Virus genome (UHGV): UHGV-2155131
DNA: 11,422 nucleotides
From: a virus
Strand: one strand, 5' to 3'
Made by a program: the position numbers and the translations under genes. The notes beneath the pieces were generated by a model. That model did not search any database, was not told the origin of the DNA, and was given only the letters and a program-made list of their open reading frames with translations. Shown here one piece after another: positions 2,053 through 11,125 of this stretch; the stretch's first letter is position 1; every line of letters starts with the position of its first letter.

Positions 2053-2460
2053 TCAGATGGTTTTCAGTATGCGATCGATGTCGCCGTCATCGCCCTGGTT
2101 TNNNNNNNNNNNNNNNNNNNNNNNNNNNNNNNNNNNNNNNNNNNNNNNNNNNNNNNNNNNNNNNNNNNNNNNNNNNNNNNNNNNNNNNNNNNNNNNNNGC
2201 TCTATGGTCATGTTCAGGATTTCACGAGCATTATCGACGCTAATACATGGCACGTTTGCCATTGCACGTAACAGCGGCTGATAGTCTTTATGCTCATGAA
2301 GCGCCATAATCGCATCAGCGCGCGGCTTGTCCTGCTCTTCCAGTTTGTTTAGTTGATATACGGCCTCATAGGTTGATAAACCTCTGTCAGCCATTGCCCG
2401 CGCTTCGGCTTTAAATTTACTCGCCAGCGGTAGCGTCATGATGCTTTCATTCGTTGCCAT
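2053..2460 (-). CDS. Hypothetical protein, last gene of capsid operon; reading frame spans an assembly gap
   Basis: Start at 2460 with a GGGGG motif and TAA-coupled spacing after the decoration gene. N-terminal 87 aa are real sequence. The C-terminal 15 aa and the terminator placement suggest the gene ends at 2053, but frame continuity across the N run is unverifiable. Confidence 0.45.
   Translation of the reverse strand: MATNESIMTLPLASKFKAEARAMADRGLSTYEAVYQLNKLEEQDKPRADAIMALHEHKDYQPLLRAMANVPCISVDNAREILNMTIEXXXXXXXXXXXXXXXXXXXXXXXXXXXXXXXXXNQGDDGDIDRILKTI
2102..2198. other. Assembly gap (97 N)
   Basis: Literal run of n in the sequence. Confidence 0.95.
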
Positions 2461-2472
2461 CGTTCCCCCTGC

Positions 2473-2808
2473 TTATCGGGCCAGCGGCTGAACGGATACG
2501 CCGGAACCCGCAAAGGCGGCGCATTTTTTCGCATCGGTGTCGACGCTCTCAGGCCAGTTAACGGCGGCAATATTGAATATCCCCGTCTTGTAACACTGTG
2601 CTGATTTCTGCTTTGACGTGTCCACAGGGTACGAGGTCAGATAAACAGCCTTGCCAGATTCCTTACCATCCCACGGCTTAAACTCGCCATTGTCCGCCAG
2701 CATCAGCGGGGTAAATTCCTGAATAACGCCAGCATCAGCGGCAAAATGTACCAGCGTCGTGGCGACCTGCTGACTGCCTGCAAATAACTCAATGTATGGA
2801 GTGTCCAT
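2473..2808 (-). CDS. Head decoration protein, lambda gpD-like
   Basis: 111 aa. Shares TPLML, WDG, YKxGxF, WPE and KKxAAFAG motifs in the same order as lambda gpD (recalled from memory). GGGGG Shine-Dalgarno motif 6 nt before ATG. Confidence 0.8.
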   Translation of the reverse strand: MDTPYIELFAGSQQVATTLVHFAADAGVIQEFTPLMLADNGEFKPWDGKESGKAVYLTSYPVDTSKQKSAQCYKTGIFNIAAVNWPESVDTDAKKCAAFAGSGVSVQPLAR

Positions 2809-2819
2809 AGAATCCCCCG

Positions 2820-3875
2820 TTAACCAATTTTGACGGTAACAAATTTGCGAATATCTGCCGGAACCGGCTGCGGTGCGCTGTGCGTCTGCACGTACTCAAT
2901 CGCCGGATCGCCGTCCTCAATCCAGTTTTTCGGGTAAAACATGTTTTGCGTTGCGCCCGTTCTTACTGCGTCCTGATCCATAATCGCACCATAGGCCACC
3001 AGCCCTTTATTGTTGGTGTTGCCCAGGACAAGCAAATCAGGCTCAAGGAAATATTTTTCTGTGCCGTCGCTGTCAGTGTATTTGCCGGAATAGACGATAA
3101 GGGCAATATCGCCCAGATAGCCTTTAAAGCTCACCACTTCGCCCAGGTTTTTACAGGCCAGCTCTGCGGCGGACTCTGAACCACGGGAAAGATCGTACAG
3201 CTCACGGAATTTTTTAAAGCTGCGTAACGTTCGCCATACCTCAGCGCCCATAATCATGACGTTTGCGGGGCAACCAGCCTGATCGGCGTATAGTTCGATA
3301 TCATAGATTGGATCGTGGGTTTCTTTGTCCTGCTCTGACCATTTTTTCCCGTCGGCCTGCTCTATGATGTTTTTTTCCGGTATCTTCCAGTCGATTTCAT
3401 AGCGCTCTATGCCTTCGCCTTCAATGATGTTTTTTCCGGTCGTTACCGCATTTACCGCCAGCCATTCCACGCGCGCTTTTATGGCGTTTATCTGGCGGCG
3501 CATATTGCCAGTAATCAGGCGCATACGGCGATAGGTAGGGTCGTTAAGCTGTGCCGGATCTTCTCCAGCCATGCGCATGATGGTTTTCGTTGGATCGATT
3601 TCGTGCTTTGGCTTCATGTAGCCAGGTTTAATCGTGCTGGTTTCGTACCCTTTATCGCGCTGAACCTGGCTACCCACCATAGGCGAACAAAACGCCGACA
3701 TGGTGACTTCTTCAATGTCCAGGGTATCCAGCATGATGTTTTGCGTGCTGAATGTCGCCACGTTCGGGAAAAACAGCGTGGTAAACAGCGGACTGAATTT
3801 AAATTCCGCAATATCCCCGCGATTCAGGTACGCAAAAAGCTGGTTAGTGTTAAGTGCCATTGCTTTTACTGTCAT
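2820..3875 (-). CDS. Major capsid protein, lambda gpE family
   Basis: 351 aa. Collinear with lambda gpE across the whole length (FKFxPLF, TPGYxKPKHE, DPxYRRxRxI, WSxxDKxTxDP, YSGxY, VLGNT, YPKNW, GDPA, SAP). Start overlaps the upstream stop (TAATG). Confidence 0.9.
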   Translation of the reverse strand: MTVKAMALNTNQLFAYLNRGDIAEFKFSPLFTTLFFPNVATFSTQNIMLDTLDIEEVTMSAFCSPMVGSQVQRDKGYETSTIKPGYMKPKHEIDPTKTIMRMAGEDPAQLNDPTYRRMRLITGNMRRQINAIKARVEWLAVNAVTTGKNIIEGEGIERYEIDWKIPEKNIIEQADGKKWSEQDKETHDPIYDIELYADQAGCPANVMIMGAEVWRTLRSFKKFRELYDLSRGSESAAELACKNLGEVVSFKGYLGDIALIVYSGKYTDSDGTEKYFLEPDLLVLGNTNNKGLVAYGAIMDQDAVRTGATQNMFYPKNWIEDGDPAIEYVQTHSAPQPVPADIRKFVTVKIG

Positions 3876-4081
3876 TATTCACCCCCGTGAACCTGATTCA
3901 TACCCAGCGCCGCGCGTAAATAGGCGCGTACCTGCCAGCCTGTTGACGGCTCAACCATCGCCAGCGGATCAAGTCCTGCCGCAATGCCTGCTTTTACGTT
4001 CTGCTGGTGGCGTTCCTTGAGCGCCTTCACGATGTCGGGGCTTATGTACACCGAAACACCGCCTTTTTTCTCTTCAGCCAT
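3875..4081 (-). CDS. Small hypothetical protein (68 aa) translationally coupled to the capsid gene; possible beta-strand/helix DNA-binding-like pattern
   Basis: AGAGGAA Shine-Dalgarno motif 9 nt upstream of ATG at 4081. TAATG overlap with the capsid gene start. Function not recognised. Confidence 0.5.
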   Translation of the reverse strand: MAEEKKGGVSVYISPDIVKALKERHQQNVKAGIAAGLDPLAMVEPSTGWQVRAYLRAALGMNQVHGGE

Positions 4082-4248
4082 AGTAAGAAATTCCTCTTTG
4101 ACTTAAAAAATCATAACTGGATGTTCATCCAGATCTGATTATAATCATGATTGCATTTTATGCAATGATGTTGAGTTGTGTTGCAAAATATGAAATGATG
4201 ATCCCGATCATGTGTGTCAGTGCACCAAAAAAAACCTCATATGCAAAA
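4082..4248 (-). promoter_or_regulatory. Putative late/capsid operon promoter region with palindromes
   Basis: AT-rich stretch between the bidirectional terminator and the first capsid-operon gene. Contains ctggatg-tt-catccag (4119..4134) and tgattataatca (4137..4148, includes a TATAAT-like hexamer). Confidence 0.35.
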
Positions 4249-4287
4249 GCCCGATAAGATGCCTCCTGTACTTATCGGGCTTTTTTT
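4249..4287 (+). terminator. Rho-independent terminator-like hairpin (gcccgataag ... cttatcgggc + T7)
   Basis: 10-bp perfect stem, 12-nt loop, T7 tail on the plus strand. May act bidirectionally together with the neighbouring hairpin. Confidence 0.5.
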
Positions 4288-4293
4288 GGGTAC

Positions 4294-4316
4294 AAAAAAG
4301 CCGGATTACTCCGGCT
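4294..4316 (-). terminator. Rho-independent terminator for the regulator / replication-side operon
   Basis: On the minus strand: hairpin gccgga-gtaat-ccggc then T6, 6 nt after the stop at 4322. Nearly identical to the terminator at 2025..2046. Confidence 0.55.
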
Positions 4317-4321
4317 GTTGA

Positions 4322-4594
4322 TTAGCTGTCTGGGTAATTACGCCATATTTCATCGCTTACACCATCTATACCCATTTCAGCATAAGTGCGATCTACTGCC
4401 TTTCTCAGGTCTCCGAAGTTATCCGGCGGCTCCGGTGGCTTCTGTGCCTTCCTGGAACATTCCAGCCGTCGCATCGTAACCTGATGCCGTTCCTTGTCTG
4501 TCTCCACCAGTTGCATGACTTCACCCCATCGTGCCGCCGCCCTCCGGTAAAAGCCTTTTGCCTCGAGTTCCTCCGCTATGCGGTCATGTACCAT
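4322..4594 (-). CDS. PerC-family transcriptional regulator-like protein
   Basis: Motif AEELEAKGFYRRAAARWGEVM resembles the conserved PerC/Pch core as I remember it. Preferred start is ATG 4594 with GAGGGGG upstream, directly after the SSB-tail stop. The ORF track extends to a GTG at 4714. Confidence 0.55.
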   Translation of the reverse strand: MVHDRIAEELEAKGFYRRAAARWGEVMQLVETDKERHQVTMRRLECSRKAQKPPEPPDNFGDLRKAVDRTYAEMGIDGVSDEIWRNYPDS

Positions 4595-4604
4595 CCTCAC
4601 CCCC

Positions 4605-4897
4605 TCAGAACGGAATATCATCACCGTAAGGGTCATCGCCTCCCGCTGGTGGCTGATTACCCTGTGTGCCTGTGGTCTTGCGTCTGTTCCCGCCAGGACG
4701 TGCCGCACGGGCACTGATTACGCTGTCTGCAATAACCTGATAACCCTGCCGCGTTTCCCCGTTCTGTCCGGTCCACTGGCTGATCTGCATGGCAAAGATA
4801 CCGCCATACGCGCCAGCGTCATCGGTGTACCCTTGCTGGTCTGTTTTACCTGCGGGTCGTCCACCAGCCGCCCGTAAGCGGCTATCTGTGCTGTCAT
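4605..4897 (-). pseudogene. SSB-like gene remnant in two frames: N-terminal OB-fold fragment (4718..4897) and C-terminal fragment ending in the DDIPF acidic tip (4605..4790)
   Basis: Frame A (MTAQIAAYGRLVDDPQVKQTSKGTPMTLARMAV...) resembles the SSB N-terminus. Frame B (...QISQWTGQNGETRQGYQVIAD...GGDDPYGDDIPF) resembles the SSB beta4-5 region and C-terminal tail. The frames overlap out of phase, about 40 aa of OB fold are missing, and no slippery heptamer was seen. Confidence 0.5.
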
Positions 4898-5172
4898 GAT
4901 TCCACCTCTCCGGTTTTAACGTTGATGGTTGTTACCTGTTCCGCTTCTGCAATCTCCCGCTCTGTCAGCGTGGCAAAGTTTGCCGCCGCCGTGGTCATGA
5001 ATGCGCTTATTAGTTCGGGATGTGCTTTCGAGTATCCTTCTCCCGCTGTGATGTCTATCACCTTTATAGCCACCTTTAAGGCGTGCTCTGTCATCTCCAG
5101 CGCTTTATATCTTGGTGCTGTTCTGTCTTTGCGTTTTTTGAGTGATTTGTTAAATCTTCCTGATGTGTGCAT
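4894..5172 (-). CDS. Hypothetical protein (92 aa)
   Basis: ORF starting next to the iterons. Its stop overlaps the SSB-like frame A start (ATGA). Function not recognised. Confidence 0.45.
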   Translation of the reverse strand: MHTSGRFNKSLKKRKDRTAPRYKALEMTEHALKVAIKVIDITAGEGYSKAHPELISAFMTTAAANFATLTEREIAEAEQVTTINVKTGEVES

Positions 5173-5220
5173 TTTTATTTTTACCCTCGTGTTTAAAAAG
5201 TTTTAGGTTGTGGTGCACCT

Positions 5221-5445
5221 CCTCTACCTCTCTACCTAATCATCTTTCATGTCAGTAATGGCGCGGCTTTCAGATGGGTAGAGGGCTTTCGTGGCCCTCT
5301 ACCCATCCTCTACCCGCCCCTCACAAACGATCTTAATCATGGTAGAAGAGGTAGAGAGGTTTTATTAGCCTTCTACCTAGCCCTCTACCCACTTATCATG
5401 TTGAATAATATGCGTTTATTTCATTCAGGTAGATTGGGTAGAGGG
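5221..5445. repeat. Iteron array; candidate replication origin downstream of the primase gene
   Basis: About 10 copies of CTCTACC / GGTAGAG in both orientations (e.g. 5222, 5230, 5276..5285, 5295..5304, 5307..5315, 5350, 5381..5390, 5436..5445), including the palindrome gggtagagggc-N7-gccctctaccc (5276..5304). Flanked by AT-rich stretches. Confidence 0.6.
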
Positions 5446-5458
5446 CTTTTACAAAAAA

Positions 5459-7207
5459 TTATAAAAACGCGTCACAATCATCAGTTGTAATTGCGTTGGT
5501 CTGCGTTACTCCCTTAACTCTCCGCGTAATATATTCATGTCCGTAAACTTTTGCCGCTGGCTTCATGGCCTTGCTGAACTCAGCCACGTTTAGCGGTTTG
5601 CTCCTGCCTGCGTATGCCATAAACGCCAGATAGACGCGGTAAAGGCTGTTTCTGGTCGTGTACTTCACGGAATCGCCACCGCCACCCATCATCAGGCCGC
5701 GAGCTTCCTCCAGAAAATTCAGGAACTGGCAAAACTCAATAACCGGATCCGTCTGTTGCTTTATCGCCAGTGCTTCATCACCGTCGCGCTGTTCCAGTAA
5801 TAAAGCCCGTGCCTTTTCAGGGTCGGCAAAATTAGCCAGCAAGCGACGGATAATTACGGGGATTTCAGCCGCGACCTTCTCCGGCAAATCCTTGTCTTTT
5901 TCGTCCTCCCTTACAATGTTGTCGAACCGGAAAATCACCCGACGGCGTGACACACCTCCGGCCCGCTCGGTGAATATCATCGGGTTATTGTTGGTAGCCA
6001 GCACCACCGCCCTGATTACCGCCGTAAAACGCTTCTCATATTTCGGGTTTATTTCCACTGGGTCGCCGCCCGTGATTTTCTTGATGCCCGTTCCTTCGCC
6101 TGTATATTTCGGCTGGTCAGCCAGGACGATAAGACGACTCCCGACAACCTGCGCACGTCCACCAGCATCATCAAGTGAGGTCATTTCAGCGCTTACCGTG
6201 TTCTGTTTCCCTGCCAGAAGGCTGGCTATGTGCGTGAATGTACTTTTACCGCTACCGCCCTCTCCGGTGGCCTCAATAAACATCTGCCAGTCGTACCGGT
6301 TCGCCATAATCATGTACAGCGCGGCACATATACGCATCATCTTGCGCGGGTCTTTTCCGGCTGCGTGCTCAAGCCATTTATGAAAGTTTGGCGCGTTGTC
6401 GCAGATATTCTCCCCTGGTGCTGGTGGCGTGTACTCAATGCCGTTGTGCGTGGTGATCCAGTTCTCCGGCGTGTGCGGGGAAAATTCCCCCGTTTTCAGG
6501 TCAAGCGCACCATTGGCGAACGGCAGCAAATCGCCGGACGGCTCCCCCATTGGTTCGGCAATAACTTTTAACGCTTCAACGGCGTTATTGATCACGCGTT
6601 TGCTAAAAGTGGCCCTGTGCTCTGAATAGATCGCCACCATTTCGCGGCTAAGTTCCATTGTGCTGACCGGACACCATACCCCGCCGCGCCATACGTGAAC
6701 GATTTCACTTTCCGGATGCACACAAACGCCATCAAATCGACCAGCAAGCATCTGTGCGCGCTCACTGTCTGCCATTTGTGCCAGTTGCGTATTTTTCTGC
6801 TCCGGCATGGTAAGCCCTGCGGCAATATTTTCACGCTCAGCATTCAGATAGCGCCGCCAGTTTTCACACTTCTGGACGTGCATTCCTTCGGGGTAAAAAT
6901 TTGCGTCCTGAATATCTGCCGCCGCCAGCTTCTGACCAATCTTTTTGGTCTCCACCAAATCCAGTTCTCCGGCCTGGTACAGCCTTACGCGTTTTTTTCC
7001 ATCCGGAACAATTTTCAGTGCATCAAGTTCGGCAAGCTGATTTGGCCCAAGCCACACAGGCGGCACATTATCGCCGGATGCGGGGCCATCCTGCTCCTGC
7101 CATTGTTTCGCGTGCGACCAGGCATCACTACCCGCGAAAATAATTACCTCTGTGTCTTTGTGTTTTATTCCGCGTGGCTGTTTTTTTACGTTCGGTGCCA
7201 GTTTCAT
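5459..7207 (-). CDS. P4-alpha-like primase / SF3 helicase replication protein
   Basis: 582 aa. Walker A motif GEGGSGKST mid-protein with a D5_N-like upstream region, typical of phage/plasmid primase P4-family C-terminal domains. GGGG motif before ATG; ATGA overlap with the upstream gene. Confidence 0.85.
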   Translation of the reverse strand: MKLAPNVKKQPRGIKHKDTEVIIFAGSDAWSHAKQWQEQDGPASGDNVPPVWLGPNQLAELDALKIVPDGKKRVRLYQAGELDLVETKKIGQKLAAADIQDANFYPEGMHVQKCENWRRYLNAERENIAAGLTMPEQKNTQLAQMADSERAQMLAGRFDGVCVHPESEIVHVWRGGVWCPVSTMELSREMVAIYSEHRATFSKRVINNAVEALKVIAEPMGEPSGDLLPFANGALDLKTGEFSPHTPENWITTHNGIEYTPPAPGENICDNAPNFHKWLEHAAGKDPRKMMRICAALYMIMANRYDWQMFIEATGEGGSGKSTFTHIASLLAGKQNTVSAEMTSLDDAGGRAQVVGSRLIVLADQPKYTGEGTGIKKITGGDPVEINPKYEKRFTAVIRAVVLATNNNPMIFTERAGGVSRRRVIFRFDNIVREDEKDKDLPEKVAAEIPVIIRRLLANFADPEKARALLLEQRDGDEALAIKQQTDPVIEFCQFLNFLEEARGLMMGGGGDSVKYTTRNSLYRVYLAFMAYAGRSKPLNVAEFSKAMKPAAKVYGHEYITRRVKGVTQTNAITTDDCDAFL

Positions 7208-7503
7208 TTTTTACCCCTGAATACGTTAAGCATCTTTTTTATTTCCTGAATATTGGCGCGTGCTTTCTCCCTGCTGGTGGGCACGTTACGCGGTACGGCC
7301 TGCACCAGAGAAAAATCACGATCGAACTGATAAACAGGCATCACGCAATCATATTCGTAGCCTTCACGACGGTAGGTTACGCGCCGTTCCTCCACGCCCT
7401 TAATCATTACCGTGCCGCCGTACTGGTCGCGGTAAATATCACCGCGCATGAATTTAGTGCGAGTTTTGCCACTGGCAGTTAAGCCAGAATATTTAAGTTT
7501 CAT
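7204..7503 (-). CDS. Hypothetical protein (99 aa), translationally coupled to primase
   Basis: ATG at 7503 with GGAG upstream. Stop overlaps the primase start. Confidence 0.5.
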   Translation of the reverse strand: MKLKYSGLTASGKTRTKFMRGDIYRDQYGGTVMIKGVEERRVTYRREGYEYDCVMPVYQFDRDFSLVQAVPRNVPTSREKARANIQEIKKMLNVFRGKK

Positions 7504-7508
7504 TATTT

Positions 7509-7739
7509 TTATTCTCCGGTGTGGGGCGCTTTATTATTCTCGTGAATTGCCATAGCCTTATTGAGTTCATCAATAACAGGTGTCAATAATGTCTGAACAG
7601 CGGCAAACATTAATGATGAATGATCTTCGCCACCTTCCGGCACTTCAATTAATTTAATTAATAACGCATTCATTTCGCGTGCTTTAATTAATGCGTTTTC
7701 AGAGTGGATTAATACTTCAAAAGGGATTTTATGCATCAC
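7509..7739 (-). CDS. Small hypothetical protein (about 75 aa) in a low-GC segment
   Basis: GGGAG Shine-Dalgarno motif before a GTG (7739) / ATG (7736) start. Helical, acidic composition. Confidence 0.5.
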   Translation of the reverse strand: MMHKIPFEVLIHSENALIKAREMNALLIKLIEVPEGGEDHSSLMFAAVQTLLTPVIDELNKAMAIHENNKAPHTGE

Positions 7740-7959
7740 AAATTTTCTCCCTTATTCTTTTAATGTCCTCATTAAGGATGTCTGTAACTTTTATCAGCGA
7801 GTTTTTGGCAATTATTTTTATTGTTTTAAGTTTTCTTTTGTCGTGCTCCGACTGTGATTTTCTTTCCATAATCTCCACCATGTGGGTAACATCAACGAGC
7901 GCACGTATCAGTATTTGCATTGCTTCTTCTGCTGCGTCCGGACGGGTGTTATTGCACAT
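7729..7959 (-). CDS. Small hypothetical protein (76 aa) in a low-GC segment
   Basis: Strong AGGAGG Shine-Dalgarno motif 6 nt before ATG 7959. 11-nt overlap with the downstream gene. Confidence 0.55.
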   Translation of the reverse strand: MCNNTRPDAAEEAMQILIRALVDVTHMVEIMERKSQSEHDKRKLKTIKIIAKNSLIKVTDILNEDIKRIREKICDA

Positions 7960-8155
7960 GGCACACCTCCTGACGAATACGGGCAGCGAATACCATCACG
8001 CAGCCAGCCGGGGATTGCTGGCGTGCTTCCTGTTCGCTGGTGGCCTCGATGGTAATCACGCGCGGTTGTGCCGTGCTCAGGGCGATAAAACGCCAGATGT
8101 ATTTATTCAGGTCGTGCGAGTCCCGCCCTTGCGGGTGTGTGGTATGATTTCTCAT
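7949..8155 (-). CDS. Small hypothetical protein (68 aa), probable first gene of the leftward replication operon
   Basis: Internal ATG at 8155 with GAGG 6 nt upstream. Protein-like translation (MRNHTTHPQGRDSHDLNKYIWRFIALS...). Same frame as the long 439-codon ORF. Confidence 0.4.
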   Translation of the reverse strand: MRNHTTHPQGRDSHDLNKYIWRFIALSTAQPRVITIEATSEQEARQQSPAGCVMVFAARIRQEVCHVQ

Positions 8156-9268
8156 AGCTGCCTCGATACTTTCGCTATCGTTGGTGGTTAGAAGCCCGGT
8201 TAGTGTTAGCGCACTGCCGGGTTTCGTCGTTTCTGCACCTTGCGCCAACAAGGTGTTGAACACCAATTTAAACCCAGGTGTTAAACACGTCAAGTGTTGA
8301 ACACTTATTTTTTTTCCTGCATACTGCATTTGTTTTTTATGAGGGGTACACCACATGGCGACAAAAGCAGTAAACGCAAAATCACAAACCGTTGCGGCAA
8401 GGGTTCCGCATGAAGTTATGAACAATGTTGAGGCGGTAAAAATGCCTGGCGAAAGTACGGGGCAATTTGTTACTGCGGCATTAAAACGAGAAGTTGAATA
8501 TCGCCAGCGGCGCAAGGCCAGTGAATCCGAGAAATCATTAATCACGTCATAACATGAAGAACGATGGCGATAATCATAGGAGTAAAAGATGTTAAAATTA
8601 AAAAAACATGTACCAATGATGGTTGCTTTAATTATCACAATCTTTCTCTTAATATCATGCTTTGAGAAAAATAGTCTTTGCTCAAACGATAAGGGCGATT
8701 TATTACGGCGTGCTTGCGATGTAGAGTTGAAAAAAAGTTGAGCACTACCTAACCGAGACAATGCCGTAGTTCCTGTAATCACAGGATCGCTCAGGCTTTG
8801 CCCACCAGCCGCAAATATGGCATTGTTGGCAATGCTCATGCGTTGGGGATAACGTGTAGCTTGTGTCGAGGGGCCACCGTAGCGGGTGGCCTTTGTTTTG
8901 CCCGTTATTCGGCAATTGTGGCGCTTCTCCACATGGTTGATATAATCCCACTGCTCAGATTCATTTTTTGCGCAGTAGGTTAATTGTTCACAAAGGCGCT
9001 CCGGCAACGGGGCGCTTTTTGTTTTTATTAGTTTGTAGAAACCTGACTCAGAGATAATGCTCATATTCTGATTGCCGTCAGGGGTGTAAGTTAAATTTAC
9101 TCCCTTTTTATCATCAAACATCTGCAACGCTCTGGCGTTAACAATATTGGTTTCACTCCCGCCAGTAAGGCCGGAAATAACCGGAATAATTTCGGCAAAA
9201 TTTTGCAGATTCTGTTTTTCAGGACGAACGAAGCCCCGCCCTTGTTCGGGAGAATATCCAGTATTCAT
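7949..9268 (-). CDS. Bro-N domain (antirepressor-like) protein; only the N-terminal ~175 aa (about 8745..9268) is recognisable and the 3' extent is uncertain
   Basis: DGNQNMSIISESGFYKLI...LPERL matches the Bro-N core motif (NMNIINESGLYSLI). The frame then runs stop-free for about 800 nt through low-complexity translation, antisense to the RHH gene and the operators. Confidence 0.45.
   Translation of the reverse strand: MNTGYSPEQGRGFVRPEKQNLQNFAEIIPVISGLTGGSETNIVNARALQMFDDKKGVNLTYTPDGNQNMSIISESGFYKLIKTKSAPLPERLCEQLTYCAKNESEQWDYINHVEKRHNCRITGKTKATRYGGPSTQATRYPQRMSIANNAIFAAGGQSLSDPVITGTTALSRLGSAQLFFNSTSQARRNKSPLSFEQRLFFSKHDIKRKIVIIKATIIGTCFFNFNIFYSYDYRHRSSCYDVINDFSDSLALRRWRYSTSRFNAAVTNCPVLSPGIFTASTLFITSCGTLAATVCDFAFTAFVAMWCTPHKKQMQYAGKKISVQHLTCLTPGFKLVFNTLLAQGAETTKPGSALTLTGLLTTNDSESIEAAMRNHTTHPQGRDSHDLNKYIWRFIALSTAQPRVITIEATSEQEARQQSPAGCVMVFAARIRQEVCHVQ
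8253..8304. promoter_or_regulatory. Three operator-like inverted repeats GTGTTNAACAC within divergent promoters
   Basis: Copies at 8253..8263, 8278..8288 and 8294..8304. Rightward promoter candidate: -35 TTGAAC (8297..8302) and -10 CATACT (8320..8325). Leftward candidate: -35 TTGACG (complement of 8288..8293) and -10 TAAATT (complement of 8265..8270). Confidence 0.5.
8355..8552 (+). CDS. Ribbon-helix-helix-like small DNA-binding protein (putative island repressor/regulator)
   Basis: GAGGGG Shine-Dalgarno motif 8 nt before ATG. N-terminal beta-strand with alternating hydrophobics (TVAARVPHEV) followed by two helices, as in Arc/CopG-type proteins. Diverges from the operator region. Confidence 0.5.
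   Translation: MATKAVNAKSQTVAARVPHEVMNNVEAVKMPGESTGQFVTAALKREVEYRQRRKASESEKSLITS
8589..8666 (+). CDS. Candidate 25-aa cationic/hydrophobic peptide (MLKLKKHVPMMVALIITNLSLNIML) downstream of the RHH gene
   Basis: Canonical AGGAG 6 nt upstream of ATG. Below the ORF-track size cutoff. Composition resembles small membrane peptides. Translated by hand. Confidence 0.25.
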
Positions 9269-9320
9269 GGTTAGATCTCTGTATTAGTGGATGGGTGGCG
9301 GCTGTGTGCCGCCAGCCTGA

Positions 9321-9509
9321 TTAGTGAACTGCCTCGCAGCTGTCCTTCCATGCCAGAACTTCGGATAAAGACCAGCCAACGGAACGACCGCCCAGCTTAC
9401 GCCGTGATGGGAATTGTCCGGCTTTTTCCAGGCGGTACCGACATGAGCGGCTCAGGCCTGTAAGTTGCTGACATTCTTTTTCACGTATAAAGCGATCTGT
9501 GCTTAACAC
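9321..9509 (-). CDS. alpA: AlpA-family phage transcriptional regulator / excisionase-like protein
   Basis: 62 aa with the LxxxxRSVGWxxSEVxxW signature of AlpA-type winged-helix proteins. Located between int and the rest of the island, as in PICIs and P4-like elements. Confidence 0.8.
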   Translation of the reverse strand: MLSTDRFIREKECQQLTGLSRSCRYRLEKAGQFPSRRKLGGRSVGWSLSEVLAWKDSCEAVH

Positions 9510-9790
9510 AATTCCCCCTTTGTTGTTTCTTAAAGAGTCATTGGGTGGATTATTGGGTTGGGTTGTGTCGGATTGTGTCAGGGTGTTTGTGGAATGGCAA
9601 ACACTGGCGGCGGTCGTTTTACAGAAGCAGGGGGAATGAGAATAAAAACTCTTTTAATTCATTATGATGCAAAGGCATAAAATTTTACTTTTACGCCTTT
9701 TTTACATATTTTTAAGAGTGATTCGCCAGTGTATAAAAAAACAGTACACCTATAAAAATCAAATGGTTATTACGATGGCTGATTTTTAAC

Positions 9791-9874: not shown

Positions 9875-11125
9875 TTATATTTCTCTGGCTATTGGCAATG
9901 TGGTTACGTTTTCATGTGTTCCCGCCAGTATCCCTAACCGCTCCGTCCACATATCCAGCGCGTCACGTTTCGCATCCAGATAACGGGAATGGTTATAGAC
10001 TCGTTGCATCCCTGGCATCTGATGACCTGTAAGCTGCTCCACGACGTGAGGATCCACGCCTAAATCGTTCAGCATCGTTGTAAAGGTGCGCCGGATGTCA
10101 TGCAGTGACCAGTGAGGGTGTTTTAGCCTCCTGTGCGCTAATCTACCGTACTGCGACACGCTTGTTTCCTGTTTCACTTCCCCCAGCAATAAGCCCGTGT
10201 GCCTGTTCTGCTCCACCAGCTGCGTGACGAACGGCAGTATTGCTTCCGGTATGGGCCGGAATATTGCCACCTTCGTTTTGCTGTGTTCTTTCGGCACGGT
10301 CCAGAGCATTTCGGTAAAATCCCACTCGCTGATCTCCGATAACCTCAGTTCTACCGTCCGGCATCCGAAAACAATCAGGAGGCGGATTAGTGCGACGTAG
10401 TAAGGGGAAAATATTTTTTTGTCCAGTGCCTGCAATAATTCGCCAAGTTCTTTGGTGCTTAAGACACGCTCGCTTATATCCGGTTTTTTCCCAACGTCCG
10501 CCACACTCATATCATCAAGAACGTTGCTGATTGCATAGCGCCGCCTCCGGCAGAACTTAAGCGCCTGTTTGCACGTCTGTAGCAAGAATCCGGCAGTAAC
10601 AGGCGTTCGCTTTGCCACCTGGTCAAAACAGGCCAGCCAGTGCCGTAGCTCGCATTTATCCAGCGGCATAGCACCAATGTGCTGTATTACGTGATTATTA
10701 AGGCGCTTTTTCAGGGCGGCATAATCCACGCGGTTTTCCTTTGCGTACGACTCAAGCCAGTAGGTGAGCGCATCGCCAACCGTTACCGGCTTTAACGCTT
10801 CCTGTACGGTGTAATTAAGCTCATGACGTGGATTTTTCCCCTCTGCCAGCCATGCGCGACACTGGGCGGCTTTTTCCCTGGCTGATTTCAGGCTCAGATC
10901 AGGATAATTTCCCAGCTTAATGCGTTCCGGTGGTGCCCCCCTTCCCGTTCCGGCCCTGTAAGTGAAATACCAGGTTAAAAGGCCACTGGTTGAATGCCTG
11001 ACGCTCAGGTTTCCACCGTCATTAAGAAAGGCTGTTTTTTGGGCGGGTGTGCCGTTGATTTTCCTCAGCTGTGTATCGCTCAGTTTGTTAAGTGCTCTGC
11101 TCATAATTTTGATTCCGGTCATCAC
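9875..11125 (-). CDS. int: P4-family tyrosine integrase
   Basis: About 410 aa. N-terminal arm-binding-like region (LSDTQLRK...GGNLSVRHSTSG...WYFTYR) and C-terminal catalytic region with an HxxRRT-like motif (LHDIRRTF). The 11125 start is GTG; ATG alternatives at 11122 and 11104. Confidence 0.9.
   Translation of the reverse strand: MMTGIKIMSRALNKLSDTQLRKINGTPAQKTAFLNDGGNLSVRHSTSGLLTWYFTYRAGTGRGAPPERIKLGNYPDLSLKSAREKAAQCRAWLAEGKNPRHELNYTVQEALKPVTVGDALTYWLESYAKENRVDYAALKKRLNNHVIQHIGAMPLDKCELRHWLACFDQVAKRTPVTAGFLLQTCKQALKFCRRRRYAISNVLDDMSVADVGKKPDISERVLSTKELGELLQALDKKIFSPYYVALIRLLIVFGCRTVELRLSEISEWDFTEMLWTVPKEHSKTKVAIFRPIPEAILPFVTQLVEQNRHTGLLLGEVKQETSVSQYGRLAHRRLKHPHWSLHDIRRTFTTMLNDLGVDPHVVEQLTGHQMPGMQRVYNHSRYLDAKRDALDMWTERLGILAGTHENVTTLPIAREI

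Follow-up and report, generated by a model that had tools for sequence, protein, structure and literature searches.

Two small genes of a predicted EcCICFT073-type phage-inducible chromosomal island form one haplotype of a variable slot upstream of the replication genes

We analysed an AT-rich stretch at positions 7509-7959 of the virus genome UHGV-2155131, the full 11,422 nt of which are referred to here as the window. Gene content and order identify the window as an EcCICFT073-type Gram-negative phage-inducible chromosomal island (PICI). An array of small genes that varies among relatives lies between an Eta/Icd-like gene and the DUF4222-replicase pair, and the stretch is its 3' end. The two genes of the stretch, here called orfB and orfA, represent one of the haplotypes found at a standard slot of a known family of satellites, its prototype included; the slot was already catalogued and uncharacterised. 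By position and analogy, we tentatively propose that orfA and orfB are putative early protein-binding modulators of a host or helper-phage target. We infer that the persistent AT-richness of the stretch is a selected or inherited property of the gene families and not a mark of recent transfer.

The GC content of 7509-7959 is 0.377 compared to 0.480 for the whole window, placing the stretch at the 2nd percentile among all 451-bp windows. In 300-bp windows, the values were 0.353-0.360 inside the stretch and 0.477 and 0.563 in the flanks. GC content at third codon positions (GC3) was 0.33 for orfA and 0.40 for orfB compared to 0.52-0.64 for the DUF4222, Icd-like and primase genes. Rare codons made up 15.8% of orfB (ATA six times, AGA three times, TCG twice and AGG once) compared to 3-6% of neighbouring genes, which suggests that orfB may be translated with low efficiency. 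The low GC noted in the initial annotation, which was made from the letters alone, was therefore confirmed, and both GC3 and codon usage deviate from those of the neighbours. A blastn comparison of the window with EcCICFT073 gave collinear matches over 2199-4790 (95.7%), 4780-7534 (85.9%) and 7965-8242 (92.5%), and no match anywhere in 7535-7964. This gap agrees nearly to the base with the stretch as first delimited. Since collinearity holds on both flanks and is lost between them, 7535-7964 is a recombination-delimited variable segment, in keeping with the earlier description of a discrete, exchangeable unit. Among 5426 complete E. coli genomes, 1797 matched the 1 kb around the stretch (7200-8200); the 451 bp itself was matched in 321 and was at least 80% covered in 43. 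The slot of one relative (L001) holds an extra second Icd-like gene and a gene for a protein of 76 amino acids (aa), that of another (L005) has orfA as its sole small gene, and a third (L004) has three different small genes.

Both genes lie on the minus strand and are closely coupled to their neighbours. The Icd-like stop and the orfB start have ATGTGCAATAA in common, an 11-nt overlap read from the sequence, in which the Icd-like gene ends CAT GTG CAA TAA and orfB starts ATG TGC AAT AAC inside it. The orfB stop and the orfA start have GTGATGCATAA in common, with orfB ending TGT GAT GCA TAA and orfA starting GTG ATG CAT AAA. The 11-nt overlap first reported for the two genes holds if orfA starts at GTG 7739 and shortens to 8 nt at ATG 7736, the likelier start because most homologues open with MHKIPF (75 aa). 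The original description of two genes of ~76 aa with Shine-Dalgarno sites (AGGAGG and AAGGGAG) was correct. The orfA stop is separated by 5 nt from the DUF4222 ATG (7503), and the DUF4222 stop and primase start overlap by 4 nt. These overlapping or adjacent stops and starts make the Icd-like gene, orfB, orfA, DUF4222 and the primase gene one translationally coupled chain. Sites resembling promoters or terminators were no more frequent in 7100-9700 than in shuffled sequence.

Both orfA and orfB are real coding genes. Across 26 distinct orfA alleles, the ratio of non-synonymous to synonymous substitution rates (dN/dS) was 0.20 at a median dS of 0.72. Variable sites fell 27/19/47 by codon position, so that the third position dominates, and the five other frames were shut in all 26 alleles. 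The dN/dS of orfB was 0.39-0.44, and its coding support is weaker than that of orfA. The orfA protein is acidic, with an isoelectric point (pI) of 5.43 and a net charge of -5, and that of orfB is slightly basic (pI 8.66, net charge +1.7); the label of small acidic proteins given initially to both is thus right for orfA and wrong for orfB.

We examined the slot in relatives from IMG/VR, using 49 loci found via orfA, 21 found via orfB and 80 of 271 found via DUF4222 alignment. The gene chain upstream of DUF4222 was rebuilt for each locus, giving 136 chains, and de-duplication of contigs left 98 distinct segments. The gene order was fixed: Icd-like, (second Icd-like), (C8/C9), (C4), (C5), C2, (C7), (C3), C1, DUF4222, then a primase or RepA-type helicase, where brackets mark genes of variable presence. 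C1 is the orfA family, and in ~131 of the 136 chains a gap of 5-6 nt separated it from the DUF4222-replicase pair downstream. It occurs as four allele types: A1 (75 aa, the type in the window), A2 (68-69 aa), A3 (77 aa, the type in EcCICFT073) and A4 (h72-like). The A1 and A3 proteins are ~33-41% identical, and a hidden Markov model built from A1 alone matched A3 at E 1e-8 to 1e-14. The assignment to phrog_2196 was made at E 8.4e-42 for A3 and 2.4e-5 for A4. C2 is the family of orfB (phrog_5146). The 41 distinct C2 proteins aligned have the N-terminus MCNxTxPDAAxxAxxxLxxALxD in common and at least four divergent C-terminal alleles, of which orfB is one.

Haplotypes within the slot were sharply defined. 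A1 was found alone in 16 segments and with an orfB-type C2 in 21, and the orfB-type C2 occurred solely with A1 (21/21). A3 was accompanied by another C2 allele and C3 in 33 of 33 cases. The window haplotype is the orfB-type C2 with the A1-type orfA. Outside the slot the pairing was loose: A1 was found with a primase in 31 cases and with RepA in 11, A3 with a primase in 24 and with RepA in 18, and a DUF4222 gene 100% identical to that of the window occurred with A1 and with A3. No association was seen in this survey between orfA allele and the type of integrase, AlpA, capsid or replicase. Mean GC3 was 0.34 for A1, 0.35 for A3, 0.42 for A2 and 0.43 for A4 (range over all orfA alleles 0.32-0.45), 0.37 for C3 and 0.42 for the orfB-type C2, compared to 0.53-0.63 for DUF4222, Icd-like, Pri, RepA, Int, capsid and SSB genes. 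Because all orfA alleles are low in GC3 despite a median dS of 0.72, low GC3 is a stable family trait without the signature of recent transfer. The single clear exception in composition was the orfA homologue of vB_KppS-Ant, with a GC content of 0.51. A sharp drop in GC within an operon can therefore reflect a long-standing family property of a resident gene and not import.

In sister islands, C2 and C3 are separate genes at a homopolymer tract of eight G (G8; ~1478-1485 in L140), and also at an interrupted tract (L087). At a tract of seven G (G7), they are fused into one protein of 144-154 aa (phrog_2512); L115 and L073 contrast with L082, L105, L111, L093 and L094 in this respect. The G7/G8 difference could be due to slipped-strand switching, programmed frameshifting or sequencing error. 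Neither C3 nor the homopolymer tract is present in the window.

Single-sequence searches of 5.8 billion proteins returned 125 clusters for orfA and 24 for orfB, and all named matches were Escherichia or Shigella 'hypothetical protein' entries. A profile that included distant orfA members returned 740 clusters, and the named ones among the 120 listed were again all from Escherichia or Shigella. When 1.84 billion representative proteins were searched exhaustively with a profile, just 15 clusters came back, and no informative domain fusion was seen. No orfA relative was confirmed among 185,579 GTDB species representatives, in a scan limited to the 600 stretches picked out by two exact peptide patterns from the alignment of the close family. 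In 50,697 phage records, tblastn found one satellite-like record for orfA and no match for orfB. Distant orfA homologues (30-39% identity, including L141-L145) were preceded by Ash/AntA/Icd-like genes and followed by DUF4222-AAA_25 or a D5 primase. The homologues thus sit at one place in satellites, which makes orfA a satellite-specific, position-locked gene. DUF4222 was also found next to xis in the lambdoid prophage at icd of CFT073 (L140, 20191-20430), the known helper of EcCICFT073 (PMC10111431). DUF4222 is therefore common to satellites and lambdoid phages, and the orfA family was seen in satellites alone.

AlphaFold2 predicted an antiparallel two-helix hairpin for each protein, with helices at residues 7-32 and 40-69 of orfA (predicted local distance difference test score, pLDDT, 80.8) and 9-34 and 38-75 of orfB (pLDDT 86.9). 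Profile searches placed residues 2-70 of orfA in phrog_2196 (E 3.7e-10) and residues 1-70 of orfB in phrog_5146 (E 1.6e-8), both families of unknown function. Neither protein matched Pfam or NCBIfam, the ArdA/Ocr/Ral-type anti-defence families held there included, and no PADLOC family was matched at E <= 0.1 by orfA, orfB or their neighbours. The best Foldseek match of both models to the PDB had E 0.14, and that of orfA to viral models E 0.3. The profile and structure searches proposed in the initial annotation gave no direct support to a helper-interference or anti-defence function. Generic two-helix hairpin or four-helix-bundle proteins (CdsO, phyllogen, EncB/C and Tsi2) resemble the models in their antiparallel helices of ~26-38 residues (TM 0.6-0.8), at E >= 0.14, with 8-27% identity and no functional residues in common. 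The fold recurs through convergence, and the likeness says nothing on function.

Several specific candidates were rejected. An encapsulated ferritin of the EncB/C type was dropped for orfB, since the Glu/His positions vary among C2 alleles. Homology between orfA and orfB was rejected at an hhalign probability of 0.3. As to a type II toxin-antitoxin pair, pairing is not obligate: among the 39 complete A1 segments, 16 have no C2 gene at all beside the A1-type orfA, and neither protein matched a toxin-antitoxin family in Pfam or NCBIfam. A literature search on the PHROG ids and RefSeq accessions of the families found no papers. The papers on Gram-negative PICIs cited here (PMC6092414, PMC6739421, PMC10111431) neither describe nor test the small genes that separate the Bro zone from the replicase, and the EcCIMP1 and HE-PICI papers name the slot genes merely as 'hypothetical proteins'.

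In the model that we tentatively favour, orfA and orfB would be made solely after helper-phage induction, through AlpA-driven read-through of the Eta/Icd-like gene. The hairpins would act as small protein-binding modules, probably as four-helix bundles in homo- or hetero-oligomers, and their partner early in the satellite's cycle may be a protein of the host or of the helper phage. Their role would be one of takeover or modulation, comparable to that of the small proteins encoded in the early operons of P4, P2 and 186, and they would be neither replisome subunits nor recently imported cargo. That the alleles diverge deeply and co-vary strictly with the small genes beside them, and that C2 and C3 are fused in some islands, suggests hetero-oligomers with a variable target. 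Several points weigh against this proposal. No homology that bears on function was found in Pfam, NCBIfam or PADLOC, or by Foldseek (E at least 0.14 for the PDB and 0.3 for viral models), and the takeover or modulator role is drawn from position and from analogy with other early operons. The co-occurrence of alleles could be explained by linkage alone, and the constant adjacency of orfA to replication genes fits a role in replication equally well. Host targets in E. coli are conserved and would not obviously explain the deep allelic divergence.

A role in replication is the strongest alternative, if a somewhat unlikely one. Here orfA and DUF4222 would help or restrain the replicase, for example by recruiting the host replisome or by limiting copy number as Cnr does for P4 alpha, and orfB would be an optional co-factor. 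The spacing of 5-6 nt between orfA and the DUF4222-replicase pair in ~131/136 loci, within a coupled chain of starts and stops, suits such a role. The stop of the orfA homologue in the satellite-like 'Escherichia phage vB_KppS-Ant' overlaps the primase start, and cnr of P4 lies directly upstream of alpha. Unchecked replication of EcCICFT073 hurts the host, so that a brake would help (PMC6092414). However, the same orfA alleles pair freely with either the D5/SF3 primase-helicase or the AAA_25 RepA-type protein, which are unrelated replicases, and A1 and A3, for all their divergence, adjoin identical DUF4222 genes. No similarity to Cnr/DUF5375 was detected (hhalign probability 0.2). In addition, a pri-ori clone of EcCICFT073 persisted as a plasmid, which neither the Δpri nor the Δori version did; whether genes upstream of pri were part of that clone is not stated in the text examined (PMC6092414). 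A replicase-specific partner is disfavoured because the same orfA alleles occur with two unrelated replicases and the pri-ori clone was maintained.

The initial annotation had read low GC and small size as typical of accessory cargo for anti-defence or helper interference. We consider an imported, mobile low-GC cassette of this kind, for example one for anti-restriction or for an inhibitor of helper reproduction, unlikely. The segment is indeed exchangeable and recombination-bounded, its deeply divergent alleles reassort independently of the remainder of the island, and orfA is acidic. The equivalent position in P4 is taken by epsilon, a helper derepressor, and the published interference screen of EcCICFT073 (2019) cloned just the genes downstream of ori (PMC6739421). 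Against this, orfA is near-universal (~131/136 loci) and position-locked rather than sporadic, low GC3 is a family-wide, stable trait, and orfB belongs to the common family phrog_5146 and is basic. No match to PADLOC and no similarity to epsilon was found. Typical DNA mimics carry a charge very unlike that of orfA (-5, pI 5.4). Conserved orthologues of uniform composition had been named at the outset as evidence against cargo: the position proved to be conserved and the composition is not uniform.

It is about as doubtful that the orfA family and DUF4222 together carry an unrecognised core function of Gram-negative PICIs, as an early factor specific to satellites, with alleles A1-A4 and their C2/C3 partners setting helper or host range. 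If this were true, the G-tract that fuses C2 and C3 in sister islands would be a second, switchable layer. The functions assigned in published work on these islands are those of int, alpA, pri/ori, rpp and the capsid genes, and the 2018 description tested int, alpA, pri and ori (PMC6092414).

Less credible again is the idea that the AT-rich DNA itself is functional, as an H-NS- or Rho-sensitive tract that silences the replication genes until AlpA-driven read-through, with the open reading frames (ORFs) secondary. The low GC3 of all orfA alleles (0.32-0.45) and of C3 (mean 0.37), maintained despite a median dS of 0.72 next to flanks at 0.53-0.63, would fit such a tract, as would the richness of orfB in rare codons. 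Gram-negative PICIs also lack a classic master repressor and need activation by AlpA (PMC6092414). Nevertheless, the orfA protein is under purifying selection (dN/dS 0.20) and has conserved motifs, the high-affinity H-NS motif is not enriched in the tract (7 matches compared to 13.4 expected), promoter-like and terminator-like sites are at chance level, and the vB_KppS-Ant homologue has a GC content of 0.51. Function of the DNA would also be compatible with function of the proteins and does not exclude it. The AT-rich tract was also considered as the replication origin and rejected; iterons lie at 5226-5449 and none in 7509-7959.

Finally, it is very improbable that one or both ORFs are non-genes, with a 166-aa plus-strand ORF (7691-8191) real in their place or the stretch decaying filler: the antisense frame is stop-free in 13/13 orfB-type alleles and orfB selection is moderate (pN/pS, the corresponding ratio for polymorphisms, 0.44) with the antisense frame little worse (0.61), but that frame is closed in most other C2 alleles and has no Shine-Dalgarno sequence before its ATG, orfB has AGGAGG, coupled start and stop codons, a confident predicted fold and phrog_5146 membership, and every alternative orfA frame is closed. 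The third codon positions of the antisense frame coincide with those of orfB, which explains why this frame is open, and we judge the plus-strand ORF to be a probable by-product of orfB coding. The preferred, tentative reading remains that of early protein-binding modulators. A near-universal, position-locked, allelic and compositionally odd gene passes from 'hypothetical protein' to a defined experimental target in islands that are widespread in E. coli.

The assignment of the window to the EcCICFT073-type Gram-negative PICIs is drawn from a co-oriented minus-strand set of genes for a tyrosine integrase, AlpA, an Icd-like protein, DUF4222, a D5_N/DUF5906 primase-helicase, SSB, PerC, a lambda-E-type capsid and a decoration protein (Table 1). 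Sequence collinearity with the prototype EcCICFT073 was confirmed at 86-96% over 2199-7534 and 7965-8242. The layout fits the four-zone scheme of Integration, Bro, Replication and Late zones described for these islands (PMC10111431). Iterons of the forms TGGGTAGAGGGC and GCCCTCTACCCA, in both orientations, follow the primase stop at 5226-5449, ahead of the next gene, and this is probably the replication origin; origins of Gram-negative PICIs lie downstream of pri (PMC6092414). At gathering thresholds, Rfam gave no match in the whole window, the C4/isrK families included, which are reported to detect CI-type immunity RNAs in some Gram-negative PICIs.

Table 1. Features of the slot and of the surrounding island, in window coordinates
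Feature	Coordinates	Strand	Description
int	9875-11125	-	Tyrosine integrase
alpA	9321-9509	-	AlpA
Icd-like gene	7949..8155	-	Conserved left flank; NF033153 phage_ICD_like, E 1.5e-19; phrog_6196
Shine-Dalgarno of orfB	7966..7971	-	AGGAGG; within Icd-like gene 3' end; 6 nt before orfB ATG
Variable segment	7535..7964		No DNA similarity to EcCICFT073 (blastn); collinear homology on both sides
orfB	7729..7959	-	76 aa, ATG; predicted two-helix hairpin; low-GC 'KSQSE' allele of C2 / phrog_5146
Shine-Dalgarno of orfA	7747..7753	-	AAGGGAG; within orfB 3' end
orfA	7509..7739	-	76 aa from GTG 7739, 75 aa from ATG 7736; A1 allele, phrog_2196
166-aa hydrophobic ORF	7691..8191	+	Antisense to orfB and the Icd-like gene
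DUF4222 gene	7204..7503	-	Conserved right flank; PF13973, E 5.3e-24; coupled translationally to replicase
P4-alpha-like primase/helicase	5459..7207	-	Pfam D5_N, DUF5906, Pox_D5; TIGR01613; 40% identity to P4 alpha aa 326-756
Probable replication origin iterons	5226..5449	both orientations	TGGGTAGAGGGC; repeats D4, D6, I1, I3-I6; downstream of pri
capsid	2820-3875	-	lambda-E-type

Several other features of the window were observed. A stop-free ORF of 439 codons (7949-9268, minus strand) runs from just past alpA to the Icd-like C-terminus, and relatives in RefSeq annotate just the last ~68 aa of this 439-aa ORF as 'Icd-like'. It is antisense to a YlcI/YnfO-family gene (8355-8552, plus strand) and has a weak Bro-N match (E 0.038). 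The long Icd-like frame is open in many relatives and reaches 805 aa with a Phage_ASH domain in one of them (L039). In P4, eta/kil is a 'Bro network' gene coupled to alpA (PMC10111431), and ORF 7949-9268 fits that arrangement by analogy. The SSB gene (4605-4897, minus strand) apparently falls into a pair of overlapping ORFs of 59 and 61 aa, and in relatives SSB is intact at 136-141 aa (for example at 5268-5690 of L001); a frameshift or sequencing error is the probable cause of the split. The PerC ORF (4322-4714) runs upstream over SSB from a GTG. A run of 97 N at 2102-2198 breaks a 135-aa gene downstream of the head-decoration gene.

The closest known system is EcCICFT073 itself, which belongs to the same island family and has the same slot and gene order (Icd-like, four small genes, DUF4222, primase, SSB, PerC, capsid). 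Its slot genes C_RS06960-C_RS06975 are C4, C2, C3 and A3, four genes compared to two in the window, and no function has been published for them in PMC6092414 or PMC6739421. The last of them, WP_001204962 (77 aa), is the A3 allele of the orfA family. WP_001372127 is an allele of the C2 family, to which orfB is close in the N-terminal ~25-38 residues alone. The slots of the two islands have no DNA similarity.

The left operon of P4 has the order eta/kil (the 'cI' ORF, Phage_ASH), epsilon, orf151, cnr and alpha. Both elements thus have an excisionase/AlpA-type gene, a Bro-network/Ash/Icd-like gene, small genes and an alpha-type primase-helicase (40% over 432 aa). In contrast, DUF4222 has no match in P4, and the analogy with the window is purely positional. 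None of the P4 small proteins could be equated with orfA or orfB. For epsilon (PF25738), there was no Pfam match and hhalign gave 0.2-0.5, while P4 epsilon itself scored 9e-51. For Cnr (DUF5375), there was likewise no Pfam match, and for orf151 no sequence or profile similarity. A weak BLAST hint of kinship between DUF4222 and orf151 fell at hhalign (probability 2.6).

The small early genes of P2 and 186 (orf80-83; fil, dhr), like phage host-takeover peptides, are short, poorly conserved and non-structural. They lie between the lysis-lysogeny control genes and the replication genes, and several act on host division or replication. We know of no homology between these genes and orfA or orfB.

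Another related system is 'Escherichia phage vB_KppS-Ant' (LR881103), a record of a 16.5-kb satellite-like genome. It differs from the window in its capsid module (major capsid protein precursor, portal and terminase), in the absence of DUF4222 and in the GC content of its orfA homologue given above. This homologue, CAD5235981.1, is 36% identical to orfA and follows an Icd-like-domain protein and a 64-aa helical protein, immediately ahead of the primase gene that its stop codon overlaps.

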